64,000 bases of DNA, taken from contig CM059432.1 in NCBI GenBank assembly GCA_030390025.1, positions 34,598,001 through 34,662,000 on the forward strand, read 5' to 3'. This stretch comes from Squalus acanthias (Eukaryota). How positions within the stretch are numbered: position 1 is the stretch's first letter; the number at the start of each line of letters is the position of its first letter. The notes under the pieces are model-generated. The model was given only the letters and a program-made list of their open reading frames with translations, searched no databases and was not told the origin of the DNA. Both the position numbers and the translations under genes were made by a program. Of this stretch, positions 14,718 to 58,512 are shown piece after piece.

Positions 14718-14756
14718 CAGTTCTGACGAAGGGTCTTCGACCTGAAACGTTAACTG
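14718..14756 (+). ncRNA. Minimal type I hammerhead ribozyme motif, family A
   Basis: CAGTT-CTGACGA-A-GGGTC ttc GACCT-GAAA-CG-TT-AACTG: core boxes, helix II, helix I, palindrome AACGTT. Confidence 0.8.
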
Positions 14757-16173
14757 TGTTTCTCTCTCCACGGGTGTTGCCTGGCCTGCTGAGTTTTTCC
14801 AGCGCTTTCTGTTGTTATTTCAGTTTTCCAGCATCCGCAGTATTTTGCTATTGTATCTATTTTTGTGATGTTGGTTGAGGGATAAATATTGGCCAGGATA
14901 CTGTGGCGAACTCCGCTGCTCTTCTCTGAATAATGCCATGGGATCTTTTACGTCCACATATGAGCTCAAGTCTCTAGGGTGGGACTTGAACCCACAACCT
15001 TCTGACTCTGAGGCGAGAGTGCGACTAACTGAGCCACGGCTGACACAGTTGGTTGAGCAATTGGGTCTCTGCAGAGCAAAGTAAGGCCCTGTGCGACCGA
15101 CAGCCCACTGCAAAAGGAAAAGGGGAAGCACAACACGTGGAGTTTGGTTCTCATTAGACAGGAACAGTAAAAAAAAACGGTCAACAAAAAAGCCCACAGG
15201 GCTGTCAGCCACTCCCGCCCTCACAGAAACAATCAAGTAGTGTGAAAACAGCAGGCCAGTGGCCTATCTGTTACCATGGTGATAGAGATGTTGCCCACAG
15301 AAGAGGGTTTGTTCTGTTGCTTTCTTGATGGTCAATTTTGATTCAGTCATTAATCCTGCTCCAAGCTCTGTCTGTAGGATTAGTACAAACGGCAGACAAC
15401 TGTGATCTTATTAAAGGAGCCTCCCAAGCAGATAAACCAGCCACATATCAGGTAATCAATGTCAACAGGGTGTTAGTCAAAGCTAATCTTGTCAGTTTGA
15501 AGGATTCCAGTCAGTAATAGGGAACGGAACATTCTTTCTGATTTTTCACTTGGGATTAGCATCAAACAGCCCCAGGTCAGGTACAGAGTGGGTTCAGAAT
15601 AAAACTCCTTCTACGCTGTCCCATCAGACACTTCCAGGTCATCTAGGGCATGGGTTAGATGCAGAGTAAAGCTTCTTCTGCACGGCCCCATCGATGTACC
15701 CCAACTAACAGTGCCTTCTAGCCCAGTTCTGGAACCGGTTGCCTGCCCTGGTTTTTGAAATGAAAATGCATCTTTTGCTACTTATTTCTGTATCTTATGA
15801 TGTGGTGCATTCGTTATGAAAGTGAAATCCCCAGCAACAATTGCCAGTCACCCTCTTTGCAGAAATCTTTTTAATGCTGGCAATTTATATTGGAAGATTA
15901 GTTTTAAGTTCCAAGATGCAATCCTTTTTTGCTTTGCCACTATTGTATCTCCTGCAGCTGCTCTCCCAACCCCTGGTTCTCCCATTCGCTCTCCAAGTTC
16001 TGCACTGCCCCATCCCCTGGTTCTTATATCCCAACTTCTGCTGCCCCATCTCAACCTCTGCTGCCCTAACACATCTCTTGCCATCCCATCTATCACAAAC
16101 TACCCTAATTCCATACCCAGCTTCCCATACCATCCTCAGCTTCCCATATCTCATCTCTGCTGTCCCTATACCA

Positions 16174-16436
16174 TGATGTGGAGATGCCGGCGTTGGACTG
16201 GGGTGGACAAAAATGAGAAGTCGCACAACACCAGGTTATAGTCCCAACAGATTTATTTAATTTTACAAGCTTTCGTAGGGAAAGATTTGAATAGATTTTG
16301 TCTGTGTTTATATTGTGAATTCTGGGAGATTCTCTCACTGCTACCCTACCTGAGGAAGGAGCGAACCGCTCCGAAAGCTTGTAAAATTAAATAAATCTGT
16401 TGGACTATAACTTGGTGTTGTGCGACTTCTCATTTT
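16174..16436. mobile_element. Penelope-like element pLTR remnant in inverted arrangement
   Basis: About 70 bp inverted arms, hammerhead motif, flanking duplication tgtccctatacca; homologous to the termini of the element at 27068-27958. Confidence 0.8.
16347..16383 (+). ncRNA. Minimal type I hammerhead ribozyme motif, family B
   Basis: TAC-CTGAGGA-A-GGAGCG aac CGCTCC-GAAA-GC-TT-GTA. Confidence 0.75.
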
Positions 16437-16785
16437 TGTCCCTATACCAACCCCACCTACTCCATATCCATCCTCAGTTATTTTGAATTTGGCAAAAGGT
16501 GGCATCTCAATTTATAATCTTATCTTCAGGAGTACCACCTATTGCATCAGTGTGACCATTATATTTCCCACAAAAAACATTCTTATGACCTTTGAGTGTG
16601 ATTGGCAATTTAGTGTCAATTAACCCTGAATTATGGGCAGTTTTACATTGCAGACCCATATCATACTTACTGCTGGACTTTTACACAGATGGTGGCCAAC
16701 TGCTGGTATGGGTTACCAGGACAGATGGCTGAGGCCAGAACACTGGACTCCTTTAAGAAACAGCTGGATGTTGTCATGGGAAGAT

Positions 16786-17438
16786 AGTAGGATGATACCC
16801 TCCCTCTTGTATGCTTCAGAGACATGGACCTTGTACAGCAGGCACCTCAAAGCACTGGAGGCACCTCAAAGCACTGGTACCACCAACGCTGCCTCCGCAA
16901 GATCCTGCAAATTCATTGGCAGGATAGGTGTACCAACGTCAGTGTTCTCGCTCAGGCCAACATCCCCAGCATCGAAGCTCTGACCACGCTCGATCAGCTC
17001 AGATGGACGGATCACATCGTCCGCATGCCCGATACGGGACTCCCAAGCGCTCTACTCTGAGTTCCGACACAGCAAGAGAGCCCTAGGTGGGCAGAGGAAA
17101 CGCTTCAAGGACACCCTCAAAGCCTCCTTGAAAAAGTGTAACATCCCCACCGACACCTGGGAATCCCTGGCCCAAGATGCACAAAGTGGAGGAGAAGCAT
17201 CCGGGAAGGCGCCGAACACCTCGAGTCTCTTCGCCGGGAGCAAGCGGAAGCCAAGCGCAAACAGCGGAAGGAGCGCACGTCAACCCAAGCACCCCACCCA
17301 CCCGCCCCTTCAACCACCATCTGCCCCACCTGTGACAGAGACTGTAGGTCCCGCATTGGACTCATCAGTCACCTGCAAACTCATTTTTAGTGTGGAAGCA
17401 AGTCATCCTCGGTTCCGAGGGACTGCCTAAGAGAGAGA
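16786..17438 (+). mobile_element. RTE-clade LINE 3' fragment
   Basis: LLYASETWTLY, HQRCLRKIL, QLRWTDHIVRMPD; frameshifted. Confidence 0.85.
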
Positions 17439-17881
17439 CAGTAGGGTTGGTCTATCAATCAAACCCCTCATCCACAGTCCAAGAGGGGTGGTATTCTGGA
17501 AGGGGGAGATCAAATGGGCAAAAAGTCTTCTTCATCTGACCCTATGCTGTGATCCTGCAATCTCAAAACTGTGGAACTCCTTACCTCCCTTGGTATTTCC
17601 TTGCTTCAACTTTAATATCACCCAGCCACTATGTCTTTATTTACCTCATCTTCTGTCCCCTTTTCAGTCTTGGAGGTGTTTTGCACTGAGTTTTGGTCCA
17701 GCAATTTAAAAAATGCTAAATTCCTCCCTATGTTGCCAGTTTTAGGGTGTTGAGTATTTTAGCTGAGCATGCAGCGCACAGTCTACCCCAAGGTGGCTGC
17801 CGCAGAAGTCCTGCTTATTCATGGGTGGGTGAATAGCTGTTTATATTTGCATCACAATACGGTGCTGCATGCATCACTCAC

Positions 17882-18036
17882 TTGTTAAAGTGATTTGCCA
17901 AGACCCCGACAACTTCTCCGATCCTATTATCGTTCCCCCGCTGCATCTTGTGCAGGCAAACTACCAGGTCATCATTCGCCTTGGTGTGGAAGATGATCAG
18001 CTGATCTCTGCCGTTGGTAACGCTGACTCCAGTCAC
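17882..18036 (-). CDS. MYO1G: Myosin I exon, TH1: [51 protein letters not shown]
   Basis: 155 bp, phase 0/2, acceptor tttgttcctttag, donor AA/gtgagt; read by hand. Confidence 0.93.
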
Positions 18037-19519
18037 CTAAAGGAACAAATGGGGATGTTAGAGCTTACTCTAGTTCATGTAGTGGGTGGCCTCAGTGTCC
18101 AGAGTCTCTGAGCTAGAAATATTTCAGTACAACTTAGCCCTTTTAATCGGGACACTTCAGATGGAACTGGCCCATCCCGATTGATGATTGCTCATCCTCA
18201 CAGAAGGCCACAGCTGACATTGCTATCTGCACAATTCCCCAATTTAGTGTTTTTTTTTATCCACCTGCCAACATTTCAAGTCAATCAGCTGCTTGACCAG
18301 CCCCCGCAGTTGGGCAACCCAGACCAGTGACATAGAAAATAAACAGAGGGTCAGGAGTAGGCCATTGAGCCCCTCGAGCCTGTTATGTCATAGAGTCATA
18401 ACGGCACAGGAGGCCATTCGGCCCATCGAGTCCGCGCCGGCTCTCTGCAGCGCAATCCAGTCAGTCCCATTCCCCCGCTCTATCCCCGTAGCCCTGCAAG
18501 TTTATTTCCCTCAAGTGCCTATCCAGTCTCCCCTGTTCTGCCATTCAATTAGATCATGGCTGATCTGTACCTCAACTGCTTTTACCCATCTTTTCTCCAT
18601 ATCCCTTGATGCCCTTACCGAACAAAAATCTGTCAATCCCAGTCTTGAAAATTTCTATTGATCCAGCATCCACAGCCTTTAGTGTGCAAACGTGCTTCCT
18701 GATTGGCCTAGCTCTAATTTTAAGATTATGCTCCCTTGTTCTGGACTCCCCCACAAGAGGAAATAGTTTCTCACTATCTATCCGATCAAATCTATTTTTT
18801 ATTTTAAAGAAAGAACTTGCATTTAATTAGCATCTTCCACGATCTCAGAATGTCATAAAGCACTTTACAGCCAATGAAGTACTTTTTGAAATTTAGTCAC
18901 TGTTGTAATGTAGGACATGGGCATGAGCTGGCACTAGTTCGCAGTATTTTTCTGGAGCCAGGAGGAGCTCTCCTGCAACTCCAGGCCCCACAGAAAATTC
19001 TTCCGAAAAACGTTCTGCACCTTTTTTTGAGTGATCAGCAGTGGCCCCTTTAAGAATCGTCGGTTAGGCTACTCACAGCCCGGTTCAATTGGGTGGAGTC
19101 CGCGCAGTGGATGCTCTGCTCATTTGTACCTGAATATTGCACACAGGGTCCTACAGCAGACGTAGGACCTTAATTTGCATATGTAAGCAGCTTCCCGTCC
19201 AAAACAGGCAGGCGTGCTGCTTGCACGTTTACAAATCCGCCTGAAAGTTGCATCAGGCAGGCTTTGGACGTCTATGGGATGGCCGAGGTGCCACCCAACC
19301 CACCAACTCTGCGGGGTGAGTCCAGGAAGTTGCCAGTGGAGGCATCCAGAGTGTAATTGCAAAGATAGCGGTCTGCAGACTTTCAGGCCCTCTCTCTTTA
19401 AAAGGGTTCCTGACGGTGAGATTCCATCTTTAAAGGGAATGGCCATTGGTGAGATTTGTTCTATAAACAGGAAGTACCCAGAAGCCCTGTTTACAGGGCA
19501 CACATGGCTGGATACTCAC

Positions 19520-19633
19520 TTGGCTGAGTGGCAGTGCTTTCATGCTCTTGTAGCATTTGTTCGGCTCCAGTTTGTACAGGTGCTGGTCAGTGATGAGAAT
19601 GGCTCGATCCTCACACTTGTTAAACCTATTGAC
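19520..19633 (-). CDS. MYO1G: Myosin I exon, TH1 PH-like: [38 protein letters not shown]
   Basis: 114 bp, phase 0/0, acceptor ttttctcggcttag, donor CAA/gtgagt; read by hand. Confidence 0.93.
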
Positions 19634-19734
19634 CTAAGCCGAGAAAACAAGAAAAATAAACCATTTCTTCCAAGGGATCTATAAATGTTCTAGACAAACA
19701 AGCAAATACACTGATAAGCACACGCACATATATA

Positions 19735-20671
19735 CATTTTGATAAATATAAATGACCTGGATATTGGAATACAGAGTAGAATTTCTAAATTTGCCAATGA
19801 CACCAAACTTGGGGCTGTGGCAAACAGTGAGGATGATACCAATCGACTGCAGCAGGACATAGAAAGGCTAGTAGAATGGGCAGACAAGTGGCAGCTGGAA
19901 TTTAATACAGAGAAGTGTGAAGTGATGCATTTTGGCAGAAGGAACAGGGAGAGGCAATATACACTTAATGGCACAGTTTTAAAGAGTGTGCAGGGACAGA
20001 GGGACCTGGGAGTTAATGTGCATAGGTCCCTGAAGGTGGCAGGACATATTGAGAGAGTGGTTAGCAAAGCATATGGGATCTTGGGCTTCATAAATAGAGG
20101 TATTGAGTACAAAAGTAGAGAAGTTATGCTGAACCTTTATAAAGCACTGGTTAGGCCATAACTGGAGTATTGCATCCAGTTCTGGTCACCACACTTTAGG
20201 AAGGATGTGAAGGCCCTCGAGAGGGTGCAGAGAGATTTACCAGAATGGTTCCGGGGATGGGGGATTTTAGCTACAAGGACAGGTTGGAGAAGCTGAGTTT
20301 GTTTTCATTAGAGCAAAGGAGGTTGAGGGGTGATTTGATAGAGGTGTACAAGATTATGACGGGTTTGGATAGGCTAGACGGAGAAAGGCTGTTCCCACTA
20401 GTTGATGGTACAAGGACAAGGGGACACAGAGTTAAGGTTTTGGGCAAGAGATACAGGGGGATGTGAGGAAAAACTTTTTTACACAGCGAGTGGTGAGGAC
20501 CTGGAATTCGCTGTCGACGGCAAGGGGAGACTGGATAGGCACTTGAGGGAAATAAACTTGCAGGGCTACGAGGATAGAGCGGGGGAATGGGACTGACTGG
20601 ATTGCTCTACAGAGAGCCGGCACGGACTCGATGGGCCGAATGGCCTCCTTCTGTGGCGTATGACTCTATGA
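19735..20671 (+). mobile_element. CR1 LINE 3' fragment (RT core to 3' UTR)
   Basis: INDLD...SKFANDTKL...KCEVMHFG; near-identical to 3482-4272. Confidence 0.92.
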
Positions 20672-22189
20672 CATACATACACACATACTCACGCACACAC
20701 GCGCACACATACACACACACGCACGCACATATACACACGCAGAGATGCACACACTTATGTTTTGGGGTTTAAATGCTCAATATTTTCCTTGGGTTCAGTT
20801 TTACCGGCCACTCCAATAAGCGAGCTTCATGTCCCCTATGTACTGGGGTATGCCTTTACTTGCCTAATATTTAGATGAATGAAGCGAGACTCAGGAAGCA
20901 AACAGGGACCCCTTGTCACTGAGGTTTGGATTACTGGAACACATCACATTCCACCACATGAACAACTTGTGTTAAGTGCGTGAAGAAATAACTATTCTAT
21001 CGGACTGTAGCTCAGGGTATAAACCAGCGAGAACAGTTACTGAACATTAAACAGGTAAATGTACAGCATTCAGTGCAAACAGTGTATGTCTGCAGCCCTT
21101 CCAACAAACTGCAGCCCCATAGCTCTGGTGGGTGTGTGCCAGATATTAGGCCGGGACCGAAATACACTGACGTCCCTGCTTCGCATGGGGATTCCCACTC
21201 GGTCTAGTGGGCAATGAATCCTCCATCCAAACAAGCGTAACAGGGACCAGGCTAGAAATGAGGGTGTGGGTGGAGTGTTCTCAATGCAGGGCGTTCCCAG
21301 ACCCCCATCCTCTAAGAGGATTGTCGAAATATTGCCGATGGTACCAAGTTACTAAATGGAGGCTGTGGGCCCCACCCGGGATCGTTATTTTTAAAGCGGC
21401 CCAATTATTAAAGAAACAACAAAATATTCTTTTGAGCAGGGGAGAGGAAATCTGCCAACCCTTTCCCTCGATCCTAGCAAGTAGTGCCACAGTATGCAGG
21501 TCTCTTCGAGAGCCCGCCATTGCAATGAAATTAGGGACCTCAGAAAGGTCTTTGAGGTCAACAGTGGAGGTTCCCTTGGAAGTGCTCCCCCTTCGGTTGA
21601 CTTTTAACCCCAGCATATTTGCAGTACTTACAAACTTTACAAAATGCCAAAAATAATAAAGGCTGCACTCTCTTTCACTCATGCTCAGCATAAACTTGAC
21701 CAGCACAAACATAGTTACTTTCTGTGTGGCTACTTGTTAAGGGGGAGTCCTCTGAGCCACCTCAAACCCTTCTGACCACTTCAGACGGATTGCTGTCTAG
21801 TTGCTTTAAAGCCAAGATAAAGCTCCAAATTTCTTTTGAAGATATCCCAGAATTGAAAAGGAATTGAAAACTGCATTTCTCTTAACAACATTAGATAGTC
21901 AGCCATTCAAAGATGTAAAACAGCTCTCAATCACGCACTTAAACAACCCACAGGCTGCTTGCTAATCAATGACATGGCCTGGCACATTGATCAGTTTCAA
22001 ACCATTTGAAGGTCTGTGGGAAGGGTCCTCATCGAAGGACAAAGGAAGCAATCATTCATCAACCAGGCTGGGCTTGGTATCTTCTGTGGCTTGCAGAAAC
22101 AGCTAGCAGTAACCAATTTTAACCTTGTGCCTGAGTTGACTGGCAAGGAAGATGCCAATAAATAATCAATCATAGCCAAGTTGAAGCAC

Positions 22190-23470
22190 ATACAAGCATA
22201 CTTACGAACACATATACAGTATGTGCACACTCATATAATCACACAAATGCACACATACACATACACACTCAGACAGTTGCACATACACAACAGACTTACA
22301 CTCAGATATATACACATCTACACATGTATACCCACTCTACAATGGCCCAAAAATTAGTGCCGCTACGCGAGAGTACGCACTGCGTACTCTCGCGTATTCT
22401 GTCTCCAATTGCCAGTTTTCTGCATGCACTGCGCATGCGCTGAAAACCGGCACTTGGTGAATGGAAAAGGGGGCGGGTCCTAGGTGAACCGCGTGCGCGC
22501 TACAGGCTGCGCGCACGCTGTGCACTTAGTGGTTTCAACGCGCAGGTAAGTACGGAAGATTCTACACATAAAAAAAGGAGGAGTAAGACCCACTTTTAAC
22601 AAGGTAAGTAGTGAATTAAGTATTATTTTCAATTTTTTTTAACAGGTATATCTTTTTTAGAGACTTTAAAGACAGGTAAGTTTATTTTTATAACTTTTTA
22701 AAAGATTTTAAATTTTTTCAAAAATTTAATTTTTTATTTAAAATGGTTAATTTATTTAACTATACTAATTTTATTAATGTGATGGTTTTTAAAAAAAATT
22801 TAATTGAGTTTTAGCGGTTCTTTTGGGGGGCTATAGTATTCATAGCTTTCACAGCACTTATGTGAAAGTTATGAATGGAAGATGGTGTGCTGCCATTGGC
22901 TCTAACTGAGTCACGTGATCCCACAGCTCGCACGAATTAACTACGCCTGTGGGATACGCAAGCCCAGCACAGCAGCTGTCCAGAACATCAAGTTCGTGCG
23001 AGCTGGAACTGAAAAAGCCAACGCGCAGTGAGAGATCGCGGGGAGGCCTTACCCTCGCACGAAGGCTTCCTCACGAATTTTTGGGCCAATATATTCTCGC
23101 ATGTGCATACAAATACAGTCACACATACGCATACATAGAAAAATGGACTTACACTCAGACACATTCACATACATATCAACGTGCACACAAAGTCATATAA
23201 ACATATTCACATGCATGGGGTCATATGTCATGTACAAACATATGCACACTCACACATACCCAAGTGAACACATATCCAATCATATGCACAAACTCGCATT
23301 TACACACACATGCACACAGACATAAACACATATATATACACACACGAACAGTTGTACAACACATACATATGCACACAGATATATATGCATGCATATATGT
23401 ACCCTTATGCATACACAAACTCTCGTATACACATGTACACACATGTAAAACCATACATACACACACACAT
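22190..23470. repeat. Degenerate (CA/TA)-rich low-complexity tract split by a MITE
   Basis: CA-rich sequence on both sides of 22344-23087; similar tracts at 20670-20755 and 38410-38620. Confidence 0.7.
22344..23087. mobile_element. MITE (PIF/Harbinger-like), 744 bp
   Basis: Perfect 12-bp TIRs ggcccaaaaatt / aatttttgggcc with AAT on both flanks. Confidence 0.8.
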
Positions 23471-23824
23471 ATAGTAATGAATGTGTTAATGTAGTTGTAC
23501 AAGATTCCTTTCTCCGCTATTTTACCCTTTGCGTTAACCCATTCTTAAAGCTCTTGTTAAATTAATTTATCAGAGAAATGAATTTCATTCAAGCCCCTTC
23601 ACATCTTTGTCACTAATACCGCAGGATGTGAGCTCAAAACCATATTTTTTGAATGTTGATTGGGGAAGGACTATGAATAAAACATGCCAAGCCCTAGACG
23701 TGACTTTACCCTTAACAATCCCACTAGTATCACTGATAAAAGAATGGAGAAGTGAAGAGCAGAGTTTTATAAATATAAGCCTGGAAACCTCTGCTGGGAG
23801 GAATCAGCAAACAAAGGTTTAATG

Positions 23825-24093
23825 CATTGCTAAGATGGCAAAAGAACCAGGGGAGAGATAAGAAATGTTTTTACGCAGTGAGTTGTTATGATCTGGAACA
23901 CACTGCTTGAAAGAGTGGTGGAAGCCAATTCAATGGTAACTTTGAAAAGGGAATTGGATATATGCTTGAAAAGGAAAAATATTCAGGGCTATGGGGAAAG
24001 AGCGAGGAGTGGGACTTACTAGATATCTCTATCAAAGAGCTGGCACAAACACGATGGGCCGAATGGCCTCCTTCTGTGCTGTACGATTCTATG
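23825..24093 (+). mobile_element. CR1 LINE 3' end fragment
   Basis: CR1 3' ORF2/UTR ending gggccgaatggcctccttctgtgctg; similar pieces at 44355-44615 and 44935-45198. Confidence 0.8.
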
Positions 24094-24269
24094 GCGACAT
24101 TCCTTTCTTAGCTTTTTGAGCAGGGAGATAAATTCTAACAGGTTACTCTCCGTGTTAAAATAGCAGGCGGGGTGAATGCCATAGGAACAAGCTTGGAGTG
24201 TTCATCCACTACTGTCGCCAGCAGAGATTTCTCGGTTGTAGCGAGGGCGCTTTCCTTCTTTATCCTTAC

Positions 24270-24374
24270 CTTTCGTACGTGTGCGGAGAACAGCACGCTG
24301 CTGAACTGTTCCTTGCATATCAGCCCCTTCATGGTTGTGATAAACTGGGACATATTCTCCTGGTTGTCCCTGGC
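24270..24374 (-). CDS. MYO1G: Myosin I exon, TH1: ARDNQENMSQFITTMKGLICKEQFSSVLFSAHVRK
   Basis: 105 bp, phase 0/0, acceptor gttccttcag, donor AAG/gtaagg. Confidence 0.93.
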
Positions 24375-24857
24375 CTGAAGGAACAGAGATTTTAATGTCA
24401 GATCGCAGCTCCAGATGAGATGGCTAGTGTCAGTGTGTCGGGACAGGTGTTTGGCTTGGCCTCGCTCGATGGGCCCATCCGAGTTGTGTCGAGCAGGGAG
24501 TCAATGAGCAGAGGATGTTGCATTTCCCAGAAGGATAGAATTTTAAGGGGTAAGACTCCTCCCCTTCCCTCTTGCCCCATGCACCTGGGCAATCTCTGGC
24601 ATCTCCTGGTAGCCACCTACAGGGACGCATTGTCGGCAATTTGAGAATGAGCAGTGTGACCGCTCATAGGAATAGGAGTAGGCCTTTCAGCCCCACGAGC
24701 CTGTTCCGGCACTCAATTAGATCATGGCTGATATTTACCTCAACTCCATTTACCTGCCTTTGCTCCATATACTTTGACACCCTTACCTAACAAAAATCCA
24801 TCTATCTCAGTCTAGAAAGAAAGAGTGGAACAGAAGAATAGGGAAGGGAGATATTCA

Positions 24858-25110
24858 ACAACAACAACAACAACAACATGCATTTATGTAGCATCTTTAA
24901 CATAGTAAAATGTCCCAAGGGGCTTCGCTGGAGCGTAATCTGACAAAAAATGACTCCAAACCAAAGAAAGTGTTATGAGGAGGAGGGACTAAAAGCTTGG
25001 TCAAAGAGGTAAGTTTTAAGGAGGAGAGAGCGAGGTGGAGAGATTTAGGGAGGGAATTCCAAAGCTTGAGGCTTAGACAGGTGAAGGCATGGCTGCCAAT
25101 GGTGGGGCGA
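24858..25110 (-). mobile_element. L2 LINE 3' end fragment
   Basis: (caa)n tail and reverse-complement match to 10590-10833. Confidence 0.75.
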
Positions 25111-25532
25111 AGGAAATGAGAGTTGCGAATGAAGTGGGGAAAAGCACAAAAGAAACATAAAAATAACCCTCCATGAACAAAGGAAGTGAGGAAAACATAA
25201 ATTACAGTTATAAGGGGTCGTTTTCAGACATCGAGTTCCTGGAAGGGAGCCTTGTCCGTTGTATTGGAAATTCCGGCATACACCCTGTATTGTTTTTCGT
25301 AAAATCATGTGCAACGTGTGCCGGAATTTGCCAAACCAGCTCTTCAACCATGACTTTGGTCACCTTCGCTCCTGCTATTCCTCTGTGAATGGCCTTGGGA
25401 TGTTTACAACATTAAAGGCGCTGTATGAATTCAAGTTGTTAATTTTGCCCAAGGGCAGAAGCAATATATAGACGAGGTTCTAGTATCTACAGATAAGCGG
25501 GGCCGACAGAGCAAAAGTAAAACGGTACTTAC

Positions 25533-27067: not shown

Positions 27068-27156
27068 ATGATGCGGAGATGCCGGTGTTGGACTGGGGTG
27101 GACAAAAGTGAGAAGTTGCACAACACCAGGTTATAGTCCAACAGTTTTATTTGAAA

Positions 27157-48200: not shown

Positions 48201-49830
48201 CTCTACCCACCCATTTAATCTTCTCCCACAGCTCTGTACAATCTACCCTATCATGGACCCTACCCCACCCATTTAATCTTCTCCCACAGCCCTGTACAAT
48301 CTACCCTATCACCAACTCTACCCACCCATTTAATCTCTTCCCATAGACACTGTACAATCTACACTCGTTGACCAACCTATTAAATTTTTTGAAGAGGTAA
48401 CAGAGAGAGTAGACAATGGTAATGCAGTAGATGTAATTTATCTAGATTTTCAAAAGGCCTTCGATAAGGTACCCCATAATAGACTGATGAACAAAGGCAG
48501 AGAATGCGGAGTCAGGGGACAAGTAGCAGAATGGATAGCTAGCTGGCTTCAAGATAGAAAGCAGAGAGTAGGGGTAAAGGGTAGCTATTCACAATGGCAG
48601 AAGGTGGGTAGTGGTGTTCCACAAGGATCAGTGCTGGGACCACTGTTGTTCACAATTTACATTAACGATTTAGACTCTGGAATCAAAAACACAATTTCTA
48701 AATTTGCAGATGACACCAAATTGGGGGGGACAGTCAATACTGAGGAGGACTGCAACAAGTTACAGGAGGACATCAATAAACTTGCAGAATGGGCAAATAA
48801 TTGGCAAATGAAGTTCAACACTGATAAATGTGAGGTATTACATTTTGGTTAATAGAATAAGGAGGTCACTTATTACTTGGAGGGTGTGAGTCTAGGTGGG
48901 GTAGAGGAACAAAGGAGTACAAATACACAAATCACTAAAAGTTGTGACACAGGTTAGCAAGGCCATAAAAAAAAGCAAACCAAGCACTAGGGTTTATTTC
49001 TAGAGGGATAGAATTGAAAAGTATGGAAGTTATGCTAAACCTGTATCGAACCTTGGTTAGACCACACTTGGAGTACTGCGTACAGTTCTGGTCGCCATAT
49101 TATAAAAAGGATATAGAGGCACTGGAGAGGGTGCAGAGAAGATTTACAAGGATGATACCAGAAATACAAAGGTATACATATCAGGAAAGGATGAACAGAC
49201 TGGGTCTCTTTTCTCTTGAAAAAAGAAGGCTGAGGGATGACCTAATAGAGGTCTTTAATATTATGAAAGGTTTTGATAGAGTGGATACAGAGAGAATGTT
49301 TCCACTTGTGGGGAAGAGCAAAACTAGGGGCCATCAATATAAGATCGTCACCAAGAAATCCAATAGGGAATTCAGAAGAAACTTCTTTACCCAAAGAGTG
49401 GTGAGAATGTGGAACTTGCTACCACAGGGAGTGGTTGAAGCGAATAGTAAAGATGCATTTAAGGGGAGGTTAGACAAGCATATGAGGGCGAAGAGAATAG
49501 AGGGTTATGCTGAGAGATTTAGATGAGGAAAGACGGGAGGTGGCTCGAGTGGAGCATAAACGCCGGCATGGACTGGTTGGGCCGAATGGCCTGTTTCTGT
49601 GCCGTATATCCTATGTAATCCTATGTACCCTCTCATGGACCCTACCCACCCATTTATTCTCCTCCCACAGACACTGTACAACCTCCCGTATTGTGGACTC
49701 TACCCACCCATTTAATCTCCTCCCATAGACACTGTACAATCTACCCTATCATGGACCCTGCCCCACCCATTTAATCGCTTCCTATACACTCTACCCTATC
49801 ATAGACTATACCCTACTCATTTAAACTCCT
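48201..49830. repeat. About 57-bp tandem repeat split by a CR1 LINE
   Basis: ccatttaatc...tgtacaatctaccctatc units at 48201-48363 and 49626-49830. Confidence 0.85.
48364..49625 (+). mobile_element. CR1 LINE RT to 3' end
   Basis: GVPQGSVLGP, KFADDTKL, LVRPHLEYC; atcctatgt-type tail. Confidence 0.93.
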
Positions 49831-51354
49831 GAAGGAAAGTTGTGGATAGATACTCCCTGAATCTCAAAGGTAATCAAGCAAAACTCTGAGATATTCATTG
49901 CTTTTCTACCATGTCCTGCTGCCCTCTGCAGACATTGGCCCCAGTAGCAGAGGACCATTGCATTCTGTGTAGAGGCTCAAGACCTCAGTGTAAACCTAAG
50001 CCTACAAGCTCCAGTCCAATTCCAAAGAAAATATTTGTTCAACTCCTTTTTAAAGGTGTAATTGACGCCGCAACAACTTACTGGGTGTCCCCTAAAGTGT
50101 ATCTGAGTCACCCATCCTGACTGCTGTGAACTGAATTCTCCATTCTGCCCACTCATAGGAATTGCTAAATGAAAAAAGGCCAAGGTATATCTAGTTCGCC
50201 TTCTACCATCCTGGTAGCTGCATGATATAATAATAATGGAGCTATTGACAATTCATAACTAAAGAACTTGCATTTTTATAGCGCCTTTCACAACCCCAGG
50301 ACATCCCAAAGGCTTTACAGCCAATGAAGTACTTTTGAAATGTAGTCACTGTTGTAATGTAGGGAAACTTGGCAGCCAATTTGCTCACAGTAAGCTTCAC
50401 TTACTTCACCTTGCTTGATCTTCAAGCACATGGACCTTCCAGCAGGTGGTTACCGGATGACAATACAATGAAACTCTAACGAGCTTTTCCCTTTCTTGGC
50501 CTTAAGGCTAATTATAGCGCCTCAAGCATGAACAAGGAATCAAAGCTCGTACCTTCTGCCCTCTGGCATCTGCCCATGGAGCCATCGAGGGAGCTGGACC
50601 TGCATCTAATGGGTGCAGCCCCTGATCCACAAGCAATTGATTCCAAGATTAATGAAAGAGTTAATTGATCCAGGAGGTGCCAGCCCTGGCATCTTTCACT
50701 TTGAGAACTAGATTGAACAATTAAGCACCGCCTATTATATGGCCGAGAACCATCGCTGTAAGCCTCGACGGCTCACCTTAACTTACATATTGAGTAAATG
50801 GTACACTATCTTTCTGCATGACATCCCATGTAACAACACCAGTCAAGGCCATTCCAAGGTGCTCGGATTAGCTTCCTGGAATGTATCTCACCTGGCAGTA
50901 ATGGCAGGAAGGGATTACTGTCCTGGATTCTACTCAGATGGGAACTGTCTAATTAATTCTGATGGCTCAGAAACATGACAACTGTTCCAGGAAGGACATC
51001 AAAGAGCAGAGAGTAGAATCATTTGTCTTATTCCAACTTGGTACAACAGGGTGACTGCGAAAGAGATAGCAGCAGCAGACCAAAGCCTAACTCAATAGCT
51101 CCGGAACTATTTGGGGCTGTTTTTGTTAGAATAGAGGAGATTACAAAGTTTGAAATTTTTAAAATTATGAAAGGATGGGACACGGTAGATAGAAACAAAC
51201 ATTTTCTTGTGATTAAGGGGTCTAGAAACAAGGGGATAATAGATATCAGATTAAAAGTAAGAGATTTAGGAGTGAGAACCAGATGTGTGAATGGGCGGTG
51301 TGTGAGTGAGACGTGTAAATGATTTGTATGTGAGTGAGACTTGTGTATGGACTG

Positions 51355-53070
51355 TGCATGTGTGTGAATGAGTTGTGTGTGAATGAGACGTGTGTGTGTG
51401 AATGAGTTGTGTGTGCGTGAATGAGTTGTGTCCGTGTGTAAATGAGTTGTGTCTGTGTGTGAATGAGTTGTGTCCGTGTGTGAATGAGTTTTGTGTGTGA
51501 ATGAGTTGTGTGTGTGTGTGAATGAGTTGTGTCTTGTGTGAATGAGTTGTGTCCGTGTGTGAATGAGTTGTGTCCATGTGTAAATGAGTTGTGTGTGTGA
51601 ATGAGTTGTGTGTTGTGTGAATGAGTTGTGTGTGTGTGTGAATGAGTTGTGTCTTGTGTGAATGAGTTGTGTCCGTGTGTAAATGAGTTGTGTGTGTGAA
51701 TGAGTTGTGTGTTGTGTGCATGAGTTGTGTGCGTGTGTGAATGAGTTGTGTGTTGTGTGCATGAGTTGTGTGCGTGTGTGAATGAGTTGTGTCCGTGTGT
51801 GAATGAGTTGTGTGTTGTGTGCATGAGTTGTGTGCGTGTGTGAATGAGTTGTGTCCGTGTGTGAATGAGTTGTGTGTTGTGTGCATGAGTTGTGTGCGTG
51901 TGTGAATGAGTTGTGTCCGTGTGTGAATGAGTTGTGTGTGTGTGTGAATGAGTTGTGTGCGTGTGTGAATGAGTTGTGTGTTGTGTGCATGAGTTGTGTG
52001 CGTGTGTGAATGAGTTGTGTCCGTGTGTGAATGAGTTGTGTGTGTGTGTGTGAATGAGTTGTGTGTTGTGTGCATGTGTGAATGAGTTGTGTCCGTGTGT
52101 GAATGAGTTGTGTGTGTGTGTGAATGAGTTGTGTGCGTGTGTGAATGAGTTGTGTGCGTGTGCGAATGAGTTGTGTCCGTGTGTGAATGAGTTGTGTCTT
52201 GTGTGTGAATGAGTTGTGTGCGTGTGTGAATGAGTTGTGTGTGTGTGAATGAGTTGTGTGCGTGCGTGAATGAGTTGTGTGCGTGCGTGAATGAGTTGTG
52301 TGCGTGCGTGAATGAGTTGTGTGCGTGCGTGAATGAGTTGTGTGCGTGCGTGAATGAGTTGTGTGCGTGCGTGAATGAGTTGTGTGTGCGTGAATGAGTT
52401 GTGTGTGTGAATGAGTTGTGTGTGTGTGAATGAGTTGTGTGTGTGTGTGAATGAGTTGTGTGTGTGTGTGAATGAGTTGTGTGTGTGAATGAGTTGTGTG
52501 TGTGAATGAGTTGTGTGTGTGAATGAGTGTGTGTGTGAATGAGTTGTGTGTGTGTGAATGAGTTGTGTGTGTGTGAATGAGTTGTGTGTGTGTGAATGAG
52601 TTGTGTGCGTGTGAATGAGTTGTGTGCGTGTGAATGAGTTGTGTGCGTGTGTGAATGAGTTGTGTGCGTGCGTGAATGAGTTGTGTGCGTGCGTGAATGA
52701 GTTGTGTGTGTGAATGAGTTGTGTGTGTGTGAATGAGTTGTGTGCGTGTGTGAATGAGTTGTGTGCGTGCGTGAATGAGTTGTGTGTGTGTGTGAATGAG
52801 TTGTGTGTGTGAATGAGTTGTGTGCGTATGTGAATGAGTTGTGTGCGTGTGTGAATGAGTTGTGTGCGTGTGTGAATGAGTTGTGTGCGTGTGTGAATGA
52901 GTTGTGTGCGTGTGTGAATGAGTTGTGTCTGTGTGTGAATGAGTTGTGTGCGTGTGTGAATGAGTTGTGTGCGTATGTGAATGAGTTGTGTGCGTGTGTG
53001 AATGAGTTGTGTGTGTGTGAATGAGTTGTGTGCGTGTGTGAATGAGTTGTGTGCGTGTGTGAATGAGATG
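51355..53070. repeat. Minisatellite gaatgagtt(gt)n, units of 17-23 bp, modal 21
   Basis: Directly visible tandem array. Confidence 0.97.
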
Positions 53071-53428
53071 TGTGAGTGAAACGTGTGTATTGTTCTGCAC
53101 ATATGTGTGAATGAGTTGTGACTGACTGATGTGTATATGCGCTGTGTTTGCTTGTGACCAGGTTGTGTGTGGATGGTGATGACTGCCAGTGACCTGTCCC
53201 CACCACCGAGCACACATGAAAAACCGTTCCCTCCTGGGGTTCAGTAACAGGCCGACAGCCCAGGTAAAACTATGCCCCAACCCGGATCTGCAGCTTGCGG
53301 GGGGGGGAGAGAAGGAGGCAAATAATGAATGAATTGAGGTCTGATCGTTGGAGAGGATTTGCAGTGCACTGGAGCTGTAATGTGTGAACAGTACAGTGGG
53401 CTGTGAGACTCAGGCAGACTTCCTTTAC

Positions 53429-53561
53429 CTTGCATTCCAAGTTAACAACGAGAGCAATCATGGAACTCCTGAAGAGGGTTGCAGCAGTTTGAGGTCGTTT
53501 CGTGACTTCTGTGATACTCAGTTCCCCTTCCGGCCACATGTCTTTCAACACGGGGTTAACA
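53429..53561 (-). CDS. MYO1G: Myosin I exon, motor: [44 protein letters not shown]
   Basis: 133 bp, phase 2/0, acceptor tgttcccag, donor AAG/gtaaag. Confidence 0.95.
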
Positions 53562-53901
53562 CTGGGAACAGAAAAAGTAACGCATTTCAGTCAGTTATGT
53601 TTCAGATTTTTCGCTCATCAAGGCCGAATATTTTAGTACAAGGAGTGTGGGGTTTCCCCCTTTCTCATCCAGTGTTGGATCAGGAATTTCCAGGTCAGCT
53701 AAAGCGTGGGTTAGATACAGAGTACAGCTCCCGCTACTCTTCCCACCCCAGTAATATCACTTAAGATGCAGGTAAGAGCCCCCTACCTGTATCGGAGTAA
53801 TATTTCCATTTCTCCCACTGCAAATGTTGTAACCTCTATAAACAAAATTAACAACTTTGGGATTGAAGTCTGAGAATTTGCCAGGAATATTTCATAGTCT
53901 C

Positions 53902-53916
53902 AGTGCCCTCTATCGG
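53902..53916 (-). promoter_or_regulatory. Weak CTCF-like motif
   Basis: Reverse complement CCGATAGAGGGCACT. Confidence 0.25.
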
Positions 53917-54409
53917 ATGCTTCAAGTATAACATCTTGAGTAAAAACAGGCCTCTCAGCTGAAATCTATTTTACCAACACTTGTGTTTGATTTTATTTTA
54001 TATCACAATATGGTTGTGTGTGGATGGTGATGACTGCCAGTGACCTGTCCATGCCCCCATAACTATAACTTCTATAACTGACGGAAATTTGTAAAATTAG
54101 GTTCTTTTGAGATCTGCACTCTGTGGAATAAAATTTTTAACAGTGTTGCATCCTTCAGGGAGCAAGATGGTGGGGTTTATATTGGTGTCGAGGTGGTCTA
54201 GTGATGGAACAAAATCACCCTCTGTGGCAGACTGTAATGTGATGCCTGAATCAGGCCGGGCTGCAGCACTCCAAGGCTTTGTTGATCATTGATTGACCAG
54301 CCAGGCTCATCCATGGAACAGGGAGGGGTGGCGATGCCACTCGAAGCTGAGGTTCTTCTTCTTCAGCTCCCTATTGCAACCCAAGGCCCTAATGGGTAGG
54401 ATAGTCCCA

Positions 54410-56215
54410 GCACGTCCATGGAAATTACAACAGGAAAACAGGCCATGGCCCAACCAGACCGTGTTGGTGTTTACCCTCCACGCAAGCAAATAGTTCTAAT
54501 CACATTTACCTACTCCCATATCCCTTCAATCCCTTTTTCTTCATCCTCTTTGAAACTTAATCTTGAATGTTGAAACAGTTTTTGCCTCAACCACTAATCC
54601 TGGAAGTGAATTCCGCAGCCTCACATCTCACTGTGTGGAAAAAGTATCACCTGCCCTCTGTTCTAAAGCTCTTACATTTAACCTTCATATCTATGGCCCC
54701 TCGTTCTTGACCCCTCAACTACTGGAAACGGTCTGCTTCTATCTACCCAGTCTCATTCTTCCATAATTTCTATCATAATCTGTGTTGTTCTCATTAAAAA
54801 AAATGCTTATTTTAAAAATCTTTCTTCATATTTGTATTTCCTCATACCAGGCAACATCTTAGTGAATCTGTGTTGTACCCTCTCTATCCTTCCTATAGCG
54901 TGGAGCTCAATAATGCACACAGCACTCTAACGGAGGTTTTACTAAGGTTTTATAGAGGCTCATTATTACCTCTTGGCTTTTAGCTCTTGTGATAAAACAT
55001 AGAATTTCATTAGCTTTCTTTTGTCTTATCAACCTGAGCTGCCTTTAATGTCTTGTGAACCTGTACTTCTAAATTTCTCTGTTCTTTCATGGCATCGAGC
55101 CTGCTTACATTCAGAGTATAATTACTGCTGTTTTTTTAACCAAAATGTATCACCTCATACTTACCGACATTGAATTCCATCAGTCACCTTTTACCTCATT
55201 CCCCCATCTTATCAGTATCTCTTTGAATTTCCGTTGGTCGTCGAACAAATTAACCATACCTCCTATTTTGGTACCATCTGCAAATTTCGACACCACTCCC
55301 TCTAGGCCTATAGCCAAAATCATTGATATACACGGTGGACAGAGGTGGTCCCAGAACTGATCCCTGTGGAAAACCATTACCCGCTTCCAACTAATCTGAA
55401 AGACTGCCATTTACTCCAACTCTGTTTTCTCCTTTCTAACCATTTTTAATCCAATTTGCTATCCTACCCCTAATTCTATACTCTTTAATCTTCTCCAATA
55501 GTCTCCCGTGTAATATCTTATCAAAGGCTTTCCTAAAGTCCATGTACACTACATCCACTGCATTTCCCCCATCTATAACATCTGCTACCTCCTCAAACAA
55601 TTCTATAGGTTTCTTGAGCACAAACGTCCATTTTGAAATCTGTGGTAATTTCATCCTTAATTAAAGACTCTAAAATTTTCCCTAACACAGATATTAAGCT
55701 AACTGGCCTGTAATTACCCGGATTAGCCCTTTTAAAAAATGGATATTACCTTGGCCACTCTCCAGTCCTCCAGCACACATTCATACTTAGGGAAATATAA
55801 TTTTTGGTCGTCGCAATTTTCTCCCTCACCTCCCTTGGGATCCTAGGTTGTATCCTGTCAGGTGCTGGCACTTTGTCTTCCTTTAACGTAACAATTTAAT
55901 CTAAAATTTCACTTATATCCATCATAATCTTACTCATCTCACTCAACAACTTCAGGATTCACCTCCTCTCCTATTGGAATTTTTTTCCTCATGCTCTCTC
56001 TTAGTTTTCCTTATTCTGCTCTTATTTTCTCATATTCTCCTTTAGTTTTTTCATCATTATTATTCTTGTAGTCCTTATAGGCCCTCTTCTTCACTTTTAC
56101 TTGGCTTCTAGGATCTTTACTTACCTATGGTCACCTGAAACTATTATTAGTTTCATTTTTTAATTATATATTTTATTATGTACCTTTGCAATCTCTTTTT
56201 CAAAAACATCCCAAA
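54410..56215 (-). mobile_element. Old degenerate CR1 LINE
   Basis: DVVYMDFRKAFDK, SKFADGTKIGG; many indels. Confidence 0.8.
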
Positions 56216-56414
56216 TGAAACATCTGAAAGTATTTTGCAAACAATGAATTGCTTTGAAGTGCAGTGACTAAGTGACTATAGTTACAGAGATAAACATGCA
56301 GCTGCTTTGAACACAACAAGATACCACAAATCACAAGTCCAATTAATCTGTTTTTGGCAAGAGTAAATTGTTCATGTTTACGCTCTGTACACTGGAGATG
56401 TACAGGAGCTGACG

Positions 56415-56620
56415 GGGGTGAATCATTCCCTTTTACCCACTATGTACTGAACATTTACAGGACCTGACACACAAGCCATATAGTACCAGATGGAATTGAA
56501 TCATTCCCTTTTACCCGCTATGTACTGAACATTTACAGGCGTTGGCACTGAGACACACACGAGCCATACAGTGCCAGACGGGAGTGAATTGTTCCCTTTT
56601 CCGGCTGTGTACTGTAGATC
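56415..56620. repeat. Degenerate tandem repeat, about 3 units of 80-90 bp
   Basis: gaatcattcccttttacc..tatgtactgaacatttacagg recurs at 56420, 56498 and 56587. Confidence 0.7.
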
Positions 56621-56683
56621 ATAAACAAAAGCTAAAGAGACACTGCAGTGATCAGGACACTGTGCTCCTAGTACTGTCCTCAC

Positions 56684-56758
56684 CTGTTGTACATCAGGCG
56701 TTTGAAGTCCTGATAGAGTGTGTCCTTGTTCTTATCGATGAAGCCTTCCACCGAGTAC
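56684..56758 (-). CDS. MYO1G: Myosin I exon, motor: [25 protein letters not shown]
   Basis: 75 bp, phase 2/2, acceptor gttcag, donor AG/gtgag; read by hand. Confidence 0.95.
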
Positions 56759-57044
56759 CTGAACCCAAGCACAAAACACAGCTTTAGTTCCCTGTCCCTA
56801 TTTTCTCCTCTCCGATCGACACTGACAGCTGCCGGGTACAGATCCACCAGCACCAGCCGTCTCCCTCCCCCAACACCTTACCCAAGTGGCTATTCTTTTA
56901 GTGTAATCCCAGACAGTGAGCGGTGGCTTGCTTTTCGCCGATGAAGGGCATCGCAGCCAAGCCTGGCTATTCCCACATATATAAAGGGGAAAAAAATCTG
57001 GTAATCTGAAGCACTAAAACAGAACGTACCCTCAGAAATTCAGT

Positions 57045-57302
57045 TTCAAAAATCTGTAAATAAAAAGCTGGTATCAGTAAAAGTGACCATGATGCTGTCG
57101 GATTGTCATAAAAACCCATCTGGTTCACTAATGTCCTTTAGGGAAGGAAATCTGCCATCCTTACCCGGTCTGGCCTATATGTGACTCCAGCCCTACACCA
57201 ATGTAGTTGATTCTTAACTGCCCTCTGAAGTGGCCTAGCAAGTCACTTGGTTGTATCAAATACCTTCCTCATCTTCTAAGGGCAACTAGGGATGGGCAAT
57301 AG
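57045..57302 (+). mobile_element. Second SINE-like family, 3' part
   Basis: Ends aagggcaactagggatgggcaata, a tail shared with LINE-end fragments at 44165-44300 and 60650-61100. Confidence 0.7.
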
Positions 57303-58475
57303 GAAGGGGAGATGGAAAGTGGGAGAGAAGGGAGAGATGGGCAGAGGGGGAAGAGGGACACACAAAGCCAGGGCCGATGTTAGGACCATGCAACCTGTGC
57401 AATTGGACAAGGCCACGAGCTAGTCAAAGCAAATGTCATCCCTGTACAGAGAAGGGGAGGTGAATAGACGGAGAAAGGAGGGGTAAGCACAGACAGAGAG
57501 GGAAGGAGACAGAGAGGAAGAGAGTGGTAGTGAGGATAGAAAACAAATGAATTTATGGGCACAAACTATCAGCATTTTCTCAATGTTTCATTAAAGGAGT
57601 TGTTGAATGCCTCCTATTATGTCAAATAAAGGTGATTCATCTCCTCGATTGAAACAATGAATTTTTAACAAAATAGTTTGGGGATCAAAAGGAAAACAGT
57701 CTGACAGCCAGCAGCAGGGACTGAACGCCCCTATGTGAAGTATTTTAACATTTTGTTTTGAGTATTCAACAAAACCTGGAAATTTCAGTTGAGGTGTTGG
57801 AGGTTGAAGCACAGACAGCCATTATCTGCTAACTAGCAGATCTCCCCTGGCATTGCTCATGGTAAGTTGGAAGATTGGCTGTTTTATAACGACCAGAGCA
57901 TTACACCATGTGACATGCAATCTAGTATTCTGCTGCTGAGGTGGAGCTGCATGTTACTAACCTGTCCCTTTTAATGGAGATATCCAGAGGCCAATTGGAA
58001 GCTAATTGCTGTCTCTGCAGGACATTTGTCTGCAGACTGGCAGTTGATTAGAAATCCCCAGCTCCTTCCCTTGGAAAGAGGCCAGGTTATCATGGTCAGA
58101 AGAAACAAGTAGGAATGACTGGCTTTCTTTCTCTATTTTTTCTATATATTTTTCAAAGATGCTTCTTGTTGATTGGTCAGTTCTCTCTGTTGAGTTTTGA
58201 TTTGCTTTTGTTTGGTTCAAATGTCATATTCATTAATCAGATGCAAATTGTGACACAGACTTTCCATGTGTGACGCTTTTCAACAAAGTTTCAACAGAGA
58301 AAGACATTGGGGGTGAAATTTCCATCGTTAGCGCCTCCGGTGGGAGGCACTAACGGGGCGCAAATGGCTTTTCGTCCCCCGAAGCGCTAACCGCGCCTCC
58401 CGTGAAATTCTGCAGGAGGTTAGCGGTGGCGCTACCGGGTAGCGCCCCAATCTTCTGCGCCCGGAGATCATGACG

Positions 58476-58512
58476 TCACCTGACGAAGGAGCAGCGCTCC
58501 GAAAGCTTGTGA
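58476..58512 (+). ncRNA. Hammerhead motif, family B
   Basis: TCAC-CTGACGA-A-GGAGC agc GCTCC-GAAA-GC-TT-GTGA. Confidence 0.8.

Follow-up and report, generated by a model that had tools for sequence, protein, structure and literature searches.

Six sequences resembling minimal hammerhead ribozymes were described in an earlier note on the 64,000-nucleotide stretch of Squalus acanthias DNA analysed here (the window), and they raise the question of what brought them to this locus and what, if anything, the ribozyme fold does for its carrier. Our analysis indicates that they are very probably minimal type I hammerhead sequences in the pLTRs of two families of Penelope-like elements (PLEs), here termed A and B, present as 5'-truncated insertions.

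Hammerhead motifs in the window

Direct reading and a descriptor search (CUGANGA, helix II of at least 4 bp, GAAA, a short helix III, UH and helix I of at least 3 bp) both recovered the six CUGANGA-A-helix II-GAAA-NN-UU motifs at the noted places, although the positions originally given mark the outer ends of helix I and not core C3, which lies at 14723(+), 16350(+), 27189(-), 27875(+), 36498(-) and 58480(+). The descriptor matched the window seven times (the six motifs and one unrelated loose match at 25836), as against a mean of 0.03 matches and a maximum of 1 in 60 dinucleotide shuffles of the window, which rules out a chance origin; none of the 21 matches that an Rfam scan of the window returned at E ≤ 10 was to a hammerhead family. 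The core of PLE minimal hammerheads (CUGANGA and GAAA...UH, with helices I and II and without helix III) is present, as is their further A, found in 84/84 family A and 187/187 family B copies.

In family A, the hammerhead at 14718..14756 (+; helix I AGUU/AACU, core CUGACGA, helix II GGGUC/GACCU, then GAAA-CG-UU; predicted cleavage 5' of 14752) belongs to a 5'-truncated pLTR arm with tail (14718..14854, +) that sits within another interspersed repeat and shows, on direct reading, an 8-bp target duplication (14710-14717 and 14855-14862). A tail-less family A arm at 36402..36502 (-), inserted in a CR1 copy and flanked by an 11-bp target duplication (36391-36401 and 36503-36513), carries the hammerhead at 36466-36502. 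Family B contributes an inverted two-arm insertion (16174..16436) with a 13-bp target duplication (16161-16173 and 16437-16449), of which the tailed arm (16174-16278, -) is truncated inside helix II and the tail-less arm ends at 16436(+); its hammerhead occupies 16347..16383 (+; UAC/GUA, CUGAGGA, GGAGCG/CGCUCC, GAAA-GC-UU; predicted cleavage 5' of 16381). The truncated arm is a seventh arm, additional to those that hold the six motifs.

A tailed family B arm of the UCAC/GUGA class (27068..27196, -) ends about 7 nt 5' of C3 and contains a hammerhead with a broken palindrome (27157-27193, -; GAAA-AC-UU). Near it lie a GIY-YIG endonuclease fragment from the C-terminal part of the family B ORF (27208..27603, +; PF01541, E 3e-4, slightly below the curated cut-off), which is 96% identical to near-full-length copies elsewhere, and a 3' UTR with tail-less pLTR of the UUAC/GUAA class (27604..27959, +; hammerhead 27871-27910, predicted cleavage 5' of 27907). 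Since the latter copy and the 27068 arm share no target duplication they are possibly two events rather than a single chimeric insertion. The tail-less UCAC/GUGA-class arm of family B at 58476..58560 (+), which has helix I at its start and carries the hammerhead at 58476-58512 (predicted cleavage 5' of 58509), showed no target duplication at its locus; three of the five insertion loci in the window have one.

All six motifs are indeed intronic, as the earlier note had it, and occupy three introns of a myosin-Id-like gene (eleven exons, 17881..62816, -) that runs past both window ends. Only those at 27157(-) and 36466(-) are sense to the pre-mRNA, with a myosin 5' splice site about 140 nt upstream of the arm of the latter. 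At 6 per 64 kb, the motifs are about three times as dense as in a genome sample of 99 evenly spaced 10-kb stretches (32 motifs in 988,300 bases), an excess with a Poisson P of 0.02 before allowing for window selection; the 110 kb flanking the window hold only 3 more motifs.

Two Penelope-like families

The proposal that two hammerhead-bearing retroelement lineages were once mobile in this genome is borne out, every motif lying in the pLTR of a Penelope-like RT-GIY-YIG element. Genome-wide, exact patterns matched 32,720 family A and 62,440 family B copies, and reversed-pattern controls gave 0. Each element has a single ORF comprising RT, a Cys linker and, at the C-terminus, a GIY-YIG domain, with RVT_1 and GIY-YIG profile matches, and the A and B proteins are 30% identical. 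Target-site duplications and intact full-length pLTR-ORF-pLTR copies occur in both families (L370 in family A, 916 aa from the first Met; L372 in family B, 892 aa), dozens of open frames of 900+ aa were found among the 150 best matches, and the traits of EN+ PLEs are present (direct or inverted pLTRs, a 30-40-nt tail, 5' truncation and a short target duplication). A CX4CX2C linker, of the CX2-5CxxC type, was read in B and most A copies, its first Cys being changed in L370; by this linker both families appear to be of Neptune/Nematis type, an assignment made from the motif, the RT homologues including no named clade references.

The 5' leader of the full-length element holds the hammerhead, which precedes the ORF start by about 120 nt (B) or 167 nt (A) and comes directly behind a TATA-like and initiator-like sequence that would serve as promoter. 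In family A a pyrimidine-rich ...CAG, a sequence that may conceivably be a 3' splice site, precedes helix I; four contig-only runs against the family A leader gave no RNA ends and no GT-AG joint, and are uninformative either way.

Several other readings of the elements were set aside. Motifs unlinked to RT-GIY-YIG ORFs are excluded by the element ORFs, and non-LTR retrozymes by the autonomous ORFs and by the lack of a tandem repeat at each of the six sites. A non-autonomous UCAC/GUGA class is unsupported, most of its long-upstream copies carrying the same ORF end at 84-95% identity. Apparent B elements with unlike 5' and 3' hammerhead types (L092, L097) owe their second types to separate neighbouring insertions; L370 carries the same type at both ends.

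Helices, palindrome and covariation

The palindromes AACGTT (A) and AAGCTT (B) described in the earlier note are found in five of the six window copies, but not in 27157(-), which reads AAACTT and is thus broken. In the established hammerhead numbering only A15.1-N-N-U16.1 can pair as helix III in the active fold; the working palindrome is therefore 4 nt long (ACGU or AGCU) and not 6, positions 15.2-16.2 being CG in family A and GC in family B. Helix I at 14718 does read cagtt/aactg, but its fifth pair is private to that copy: AACTG occurs in 1/84 family A copies and CAGTT/AACTC in 68/84, and helix I of the 36466 copy has 4 pairs. Helix II measures 5-6 bp, with the usual G10.1-C11.1 pair in family B and, as a departure from it, A-U or G-U at 10.1-11.1 in family A.

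The covariation claimed for these helices is real, but stems from two lineage-level compensatory events and from G-U intermediates among subfamilies; being copies of two families at five insertion loci, the six motifs are not independent samples of it. Overall, 97.1% of helix cells were paired, a value reached by none of 500 shuffles (slid controls gave at most 48%), and 19 B haplotypes showed two double changes and two G-U variants, a count of few independent events that is not tree-aware. Subfamily variation falls at hammerhead-tolerant places: N7 in 187 B copies is C92/A56/G32/T7, loop II has 3 to 8 nt, H17 can be U or C, and changes in the helices are either compensatory or of the G-U kind. 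In invariance the core is matched by the next 30 nt downstream of the motif, so that invariance alone is no proof of ribozyme function.

Dimer compatibility and predicted cleavage

By analogy with published examples the predicted ribozymes, having no helix III of their own, would cleave only as same-family double hammerheads. Nearest-neighbour energies for the active fold were -10.9 to -21.9 kcal/mol for homodimers of intact-palindrome copies and +1.0 to -3.8 kcal/mol for A/B heterodimers, which form 2/4 helix-III pairs and 0-1 helix-I pairs. The model predicts that A/B heterodimers would fail, and that helix I, which is intermolecular in the double hammerhead too, would weigh as much in this incompatibility as the palindrome. 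The active dimer was the lowest-energy fold for none of the computed pairs, and the minimum-energy folds of the family A monomer and dimer sequester the core. Subfamilies with a U4C core have spread in both families (3,877 matches in family B; both pLTRs of the intact copy L370 in family A); since U4C is reported to reduce hammerhead activity considerably in vitro (PMC3088659), strong catalysis is not required for spreading.

Insertion junctions and inverted copies

The 5' ends of 24/102 family A and 36/106 family B arms fall between C3+2 and C3-12. The rate of 5' ends near the hammerhead is 2.7% per nt in A and 3.3% in B, as against 0.36 and 0.68% further upstream, which amounts to an excess of about 5-8-fold just 5' of the motif (p about 2e-9 per family). 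No such pile-up occurs within 2 nt of the cleavage site (3/102 A and 0/106 B arms). That inserted copies end just 5' of the hammerhead, and hardly ever where it would be cleaved, makes uncut RNA the most likely template for reverse transcription. The reference set behind the 5'-end calls comprises 11 A and 9 B copies, and subfamilies missing from it would yield false ends near helix I, a concern partly answered by 7/12 B inverted pairs in unselected stretches whose junction lies at the hammerhead and by two duplication-bounded copies in the window.

Inverted insertions follow a one-tail rule, a tail being present in one arm only in 117/124; a target duplication of at least 10 bp accompanies 91/117 of these pairs, compared with 1/83 mismatched controls. 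The two arms match in allele in 48/57 target-duplicated B pairs and differ at subfamily-diagnostic sites in 9/57, three of them at two sites (background mismatch 1.2% per site; 2/59 rows dropped as junction artefacts), which suggests that some insertions use two templates. There were no A-B pairs among the 124 inverted pairs and no GUGA-GUAA pairs among 59.

Role of the hammerhead

A putative pathway can accommodate these observations. New copies would likely derive from uncut RNA. The RT-endonuclease would nick the two target strands at sites 12-14 nt apart, and priming would take place at the tail for one end and at the pLTR end for the other. Synthesis of the cDNAs would frequently cease at the hammerhead or just 5' of it, reflecting either the transcript 5' end or an RT stall, and such early stops would generate the genome's predominant copies, which are short solo and fold-back forms. 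Double-hammerhead cleavage would probably be slow and aided by the element protein, judging from Cervera 2014 and Frangieh 2024. Copying of uncut RNA, with 5' ends that avoid the cleavage site, agrees with Frangieh 2024.

We consider it unlikely that the main role of the fold is to signal RNA dimerisation in a family-specific way, much as a retroviral dimer-initiation site does. On this view the palindrome and swapped helix I would pair two uncut transcripts in a dimeric RT-endonuclease particle, both target nicks would be primed (the first at the tail, the second at the pLTR end), and each RNA would template one arm, the cDNAs joining at the ribozyme, where the RNAs meet. Such pairing would fit the single tail of inverted pairs, the clustering of junctions at the hammerhead, the retention of both helices and palindrome in U4C lineages and the protein dimer predicted for the anole element (PMC11167929); nevertheless, the cluster is explained without pairing if transcription starts just 5' of the motif, core mutants left in vitro insertion unchanged (PMC11167929), and Naiad elements, which have no canonical hammerheads, form the same inverted one-tailed insertions (PMC8557442). 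The nine allele-discordant B pairs also favour dimerisation, but could arise if the RT slips in loop II, by gene conversion or from a source whose two pLTRs differ, and the 48 matched pairs are what a single source locus would also give. Similarly, the lack of A-B and GUGA-GUAA pairs is as expected of a family-specific signal, yet family purity could equally reflect cis-preference of the protein, and the loci were mostly retrieved one family at a time.

Doubtful, too, is the view of the motif as a relic without catalytic activity that persists only through overlap with promoter and RT-binding signals. Initiator-like sequences do overlap helix I, the downstream flank is as invariant as the core, U4C subfamilies exist and 5' ends lie elsewhere than at the cleavage site (3/208 arms at it); against this, the core is kept between families with 30%-identical proteins and non-aligning flanks, free variation is confined to N7, loop II and H17 whilst helix changes are compensatory, and cleavage does occur in related motifs, as dimers or in the presence of protein. 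An action on the myosin gene, by intronic self-cleavage or by pairing that regulates the pre-mRNA, is highly improbable: the intronic position of all six, the sense orientation of 36498(-) close to a splice donor and the raised local density might favour it, but the two sense motifs, one A and one broken-palindrome B, are predicted to be incompatible, the sole other sense canonical copy in the flanks (window-equivalent 73371) is a fold-back with its own inverted arm, and all six are near-identical to thousands of dispersed young copies. The intronic copies are most likely inert passengers, and their location in myosin introns is without special meaning.

For the preferred reading, of pLTR hammerheads in elements copied from uncut RNA, the sample lends genomic support to the in vitro result. 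The role of the PLE hammerhead is called unclear in PMC8557442, and this genome offers as material two young and very abundant families whose source copies are intact, natural variation in helix I and at U4C, and insertion junctions by the tens of thousands. Were dimerisation the true role, some 100,000 copies would form a fossil record of junctions and chimeric arms.

Comparison with known systems

The motifs are of the kind described in 2014 in pLTRs of metazoan PLEs, in the relevant passages of Cervera and de la Pena (PMC4209133), and dimer cleavage of such hammerheads is reported by Lunse et al., as cited in PMC6765202. Sharks are not named in those 2014 passages, and no paper on shark PLE hammerheads was found in the literature searched, which is thin in subscription journals and repeat databases. 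Exact matches here number at least 95,000, whereas the counts for coelacanth (about 4,000) and Xenopus (9,000) come from a different descriptor; the dogfish motifs further differ in the A-U or G-U pair at 10.1-11.1 of family A, the 5-6-bp helix II and the U4C subfamilies.

For PAc, the Poseidon element of Anolis carolinensis, Frangieh 2024 (PMC11167929) found that unprocessed RNA is the main substrate, that hammerhead cleavage needs protein, that two RT start sites flank the tail and that both strands are cut and extended. Our families resemble PAc in a pLTR hammerhead near the start of one RT-GIY-YIG ORF, in a tail between two element ends and in showing no sign of ends at the cleavage site. 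However, PAc belongs to the Penelope/Poseidon clade and its cut site lies inside the ORF, whereas the shark motif lies wholly in the 5' leader and the shark proteins have a Neptune/Nematis-type Cys linker.

Type I hammerheads related to those of PLE pLTRs also occur in the non-LTR retrozymes of animals (bioRxiv 10.64898/2026.07.22.740005; PMC7229834), reported in one chondrichthyan too. Retrozymes are non-coding head-to-tail tandem repeats, unlike the window copies, which are dispersed truncated ends of autonomous coding elements.

Further parallels are offered by the Neptune/Nematis EN+ PLEs, as defined by Craig et al. 2021 (PMC8557442), and by the Penelope elements of Adineta (PMC3846280), which share with our families a GIY-YIG domain at the C-terminus, the CX2-5CxxC linker, 5' truncation, partial tandems, inverted copies, a tail of 30-40 bp that is often present at one end, target duplications of short length and TATA/initiator-like pLTR motifs. 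Relative to these, no microsatellite insertion bias is seen in the window copies, and the one-tail rule and junction positions are quantified. What is added here comprises the 5'-end positions, the one-tail statistics, the mixed-allele arms and the spread of U4C in both families.

Results

Hammerhead motifs and their carriers

Direct reading of the window confirms the six hammerhead motifs described in the earlier note (core position C3 at 14723(+), 16350(+), 27189(-), 27875(+), 36498(-) and 58480(+)), and a type I hammerhead descriptor returned seven matches, i.e. these six and one loose unrelated match, against a chance level of 0.03 (mean of 60 dinucleotide shuffles). An Rfam scan of the window gave no model matching the motifs. 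Beyond it, the descriptor matched 32 times in 988,300 bases (99 evenly spaced 10-kb stretches of large contigs), far above the 1, 0 and 0 matches in three shuffles of these stretches, and all 32 belong to families A and B, the two Penelope-like element (PLE) families that carry minimal hammerheads in their pseudo-LTR ends (pLTRs). Exact-pattern counts across the 3.7-Gb assembly to which the window belongs were 62,440 for B and 32,720 for A, with none for control patterns; these are assembly matches, in which duplicated scaffolds may be included. The motifs are real, their original classification is correct and their kind is already known. Two details need amending: the palindrome ascribed to every copy is missing from copy 27157 (C3 at 27189) because this reads GAAA-AC-UU, and the 5-bp helix I of copy 14718 (cagtt/aactg) occurs in this one copy of the 84.

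Between the inverted motifs at 27189 and 27875 sits a GIY-YIG fragment. A first-look search of the genome gave 52,029 candidates for it, and the 150 that were scored showed 93-100% identity; its longer copies combine RT, a CX4CX2C linker and GIY-YIG. Full-length B copies comprise a pLTR with hammerhead, a tail, an ATG and an 892-aa ORF, the start codon lying where the tail stops. A second RT-GIY-YIG ORF precedes the family A motifs by ~270-300 nt, and locus L370 is a full pLTR-ORF-pLTR copy of this family (916 aa from the first Met). These separate ORFs, whose proteins are 30% identical, bear out the proposal of two ribozyme-bearing retroelement lineages. Among 7,999 candidates scored, the named close homologues of the B protein are uncharacterised shark proteins (79-92% identity), and turtle and invertebrate relatives stand at ~40%. 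One full-length B copy, L372, has an intact 5' hammerhead and lacks 3-4 core bases in that of its 3' pLTR.

Conservation, covariation and predicted dimers

In an alignment of 187 B copies, which were not motif-selected (up to 3 and 4 mismatches permitted in the two halves), each core position is 97-100% fixed, the exceptions being N7 (three states), H17 (U in 164, C in 21) and U4 (kept in 173, C in 9); loop II has many lengths. Helix I reads TCAC/GTGA in 77 copies and TTAC/GTAA in another 65, while 3-bp and G-U forms also occur; helix II changes from A-U to G-U, plus one C-G to U-A. Two loci, L282 and L270, have TTAC/GTGA, a G-U intermediate between the helix-I classes. Over 19 distinct B haplotypes the covariation test found 97.1% of cells paired, a value reached by none of 500 shuffles, with slid controls at 48% or less. 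As judged from the alignment, variation in B is the pattern of a hammerhead, as the claim of a fixed core with covarying helices had it, though two double changes carry the pairing signal. Invariance is equally high in the adjacent pLTR sequence, and in family A (84 copies) A-U/G-U is the sole helix change. Both families contain amplified U4C subfamilies (B alone gave 3,877 matches), in which the core variant CCGACGA is fixed (examples at L370:1293 and 4487, L343, L105 and L232); some of those in B show a compensatory helix II change alongside. In vitro, U4C is described as reducing hammerhead activity (PMC3088659).

In a double hammerhead, helices I and III are both intermolecular. Computed with a nearest-neighbour energy model, an A x B dimer would retain two of four helix-III pairs and 0-1 helix-I pairs, and a B x B dimer across helix-I classes would keep helix III intact and lose part of one helix I. 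Because A x B loses pairs in both helices, family-specific dimer activation remains the prediction, one that would depend on helix I together with the palindrome. In no case was the active dimer the lowest-energy fold, and the modelled family A monomer hides its core.

Insertion anatomy

All fetched loci together yielded 124 outward-facing pairs of arms (inserted pLTR copies, with or without a short tail): 36 A-A, 88 B-B and no A-B, a family purity that is weak evidence because retrieval was done one family at a time for most loci. Exactly one arm is tailed in 117 pairs, both in 1 and neither in 6 (108 of 114 followed the one-tail rule in an earlier set), and target duplications of at least 10 bp (mode 12-13) accompany 91 of the 117 one-tail pairs vs 1 of 83 controls. 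Three of five window loci have a duplication (8, 13 and 11 bp). Typed B pairs with duplication are GUGA-GUGA (40) or GUAA-GUAA (19), and arms differ at diagnostic sites in 11 of these 59 (2 being junction artefacts, 3 at two sites), where random pairing would give 85% discordance and background mismatch is 1.2% per site; A arms differ in 8 of 21 pairs, mostly at single sites (background 1.7%). On these figures, one source element lies behind most insertions, and two templates seem to lie behind a minority.

Among arms not chosen by upstream sequence (3 from one tandem array removed from B), 5' ends fall within C3+2 to -12 in 24 of 102 A and 36 of 106 B arms, ~5-8 times the upstream rate, the end calls depending on a reference set of 11 copies for A and 9 for B. 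Ends at the cleavage site are scarce (A 3, B 0); TATA-like words occur ~35-40 nt upstream and initiator-like words overlap helix I. These words make run-off at a transcription start the simplest cause of the cluster, RT stalling being the alternative. In family A a pyrimidine tract 15 nt before C3 (e.g. L032), its CAG end abutting helix I, could be taken either for an initiator or for a 3' splice site like that of Drosophila virilis Penelope. At window 27196-27240 a small inverted duplication resembling a template-switch scar lies where the tailed B arm meets the GIY-YIG fragment. Elsewhere, less than 10 kb of sequence at G000:C9:140.10 Mb (L217-L221) holds five tailed B arms, all identical and ~1.0-4.8 kb apart, behind minisatellite-like sequence; this is a tandem amplification of local extent that may be retrozyme-like.

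Host gene and neighbouring repeats

A domain search matched one window exon to Myosin_head; the ten top-ranking homologues of this exon are all myosin-Id-like proteins from sharks and rays, and tblastn with two such homologues traces the gene on the minus strand through the window and past it. This mapping, with splice sites read, bears out the claimed position in myosin introns, of which three hold the motifs. The pre-mRNA would carry two of them in sense orientation, 36498 (family A) and 27189 (family B, broken palindrome), and the flanking 110 kb contain three more motifs; there is no indication of a function within the myosin gene. A myosin intron also holds broken LTR retrotransposon remnants (30910-34698, minus strand) with gag-, RT/RNase H- and integrase-like frames, which we take from their translations to be Ty3/gypsy-like. 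Many CR1-type LINE fragments lie on both strands (3561-4251, 13862-14614, 19718-20658, 25961-27019, 28196-30751, 35240-36401, 48334-49526), and two Penelope arms sit in or adjoin them. Minisatellites occupy 41535-43151, 51374-53078 and 59219-60361 (units 23, 21 and 67 nt), the 67-nt unit being dispersed too (27998, 35110, 37262).

Comparison with published systems

The relevant passages of Cervera and de la Pena 2014 (PMC4209133) define the motif in PLE pLTRs, with palindrome and dimer requirement, describe PLE hammerhead activity as low and count ~4,000 motifs in coelacanth and ~9,000 in Xenopus. Frangieh 2024 (PMC11167929), as far as its account of insertion goes, places the tail between two RT start sites, with both strands cut and extended; the protein assists cleavage, and insertion in vitro proceeds without need of it. 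Inverted copies, a tail frequently at one end and the linker definition appear in sections of Craig 2021 (PMC8557442) and the Adineta paper (PMC3846280), where hammerhead function is called unclear. Copy number and junction statistics make that question of PLE hammerhead function testable.
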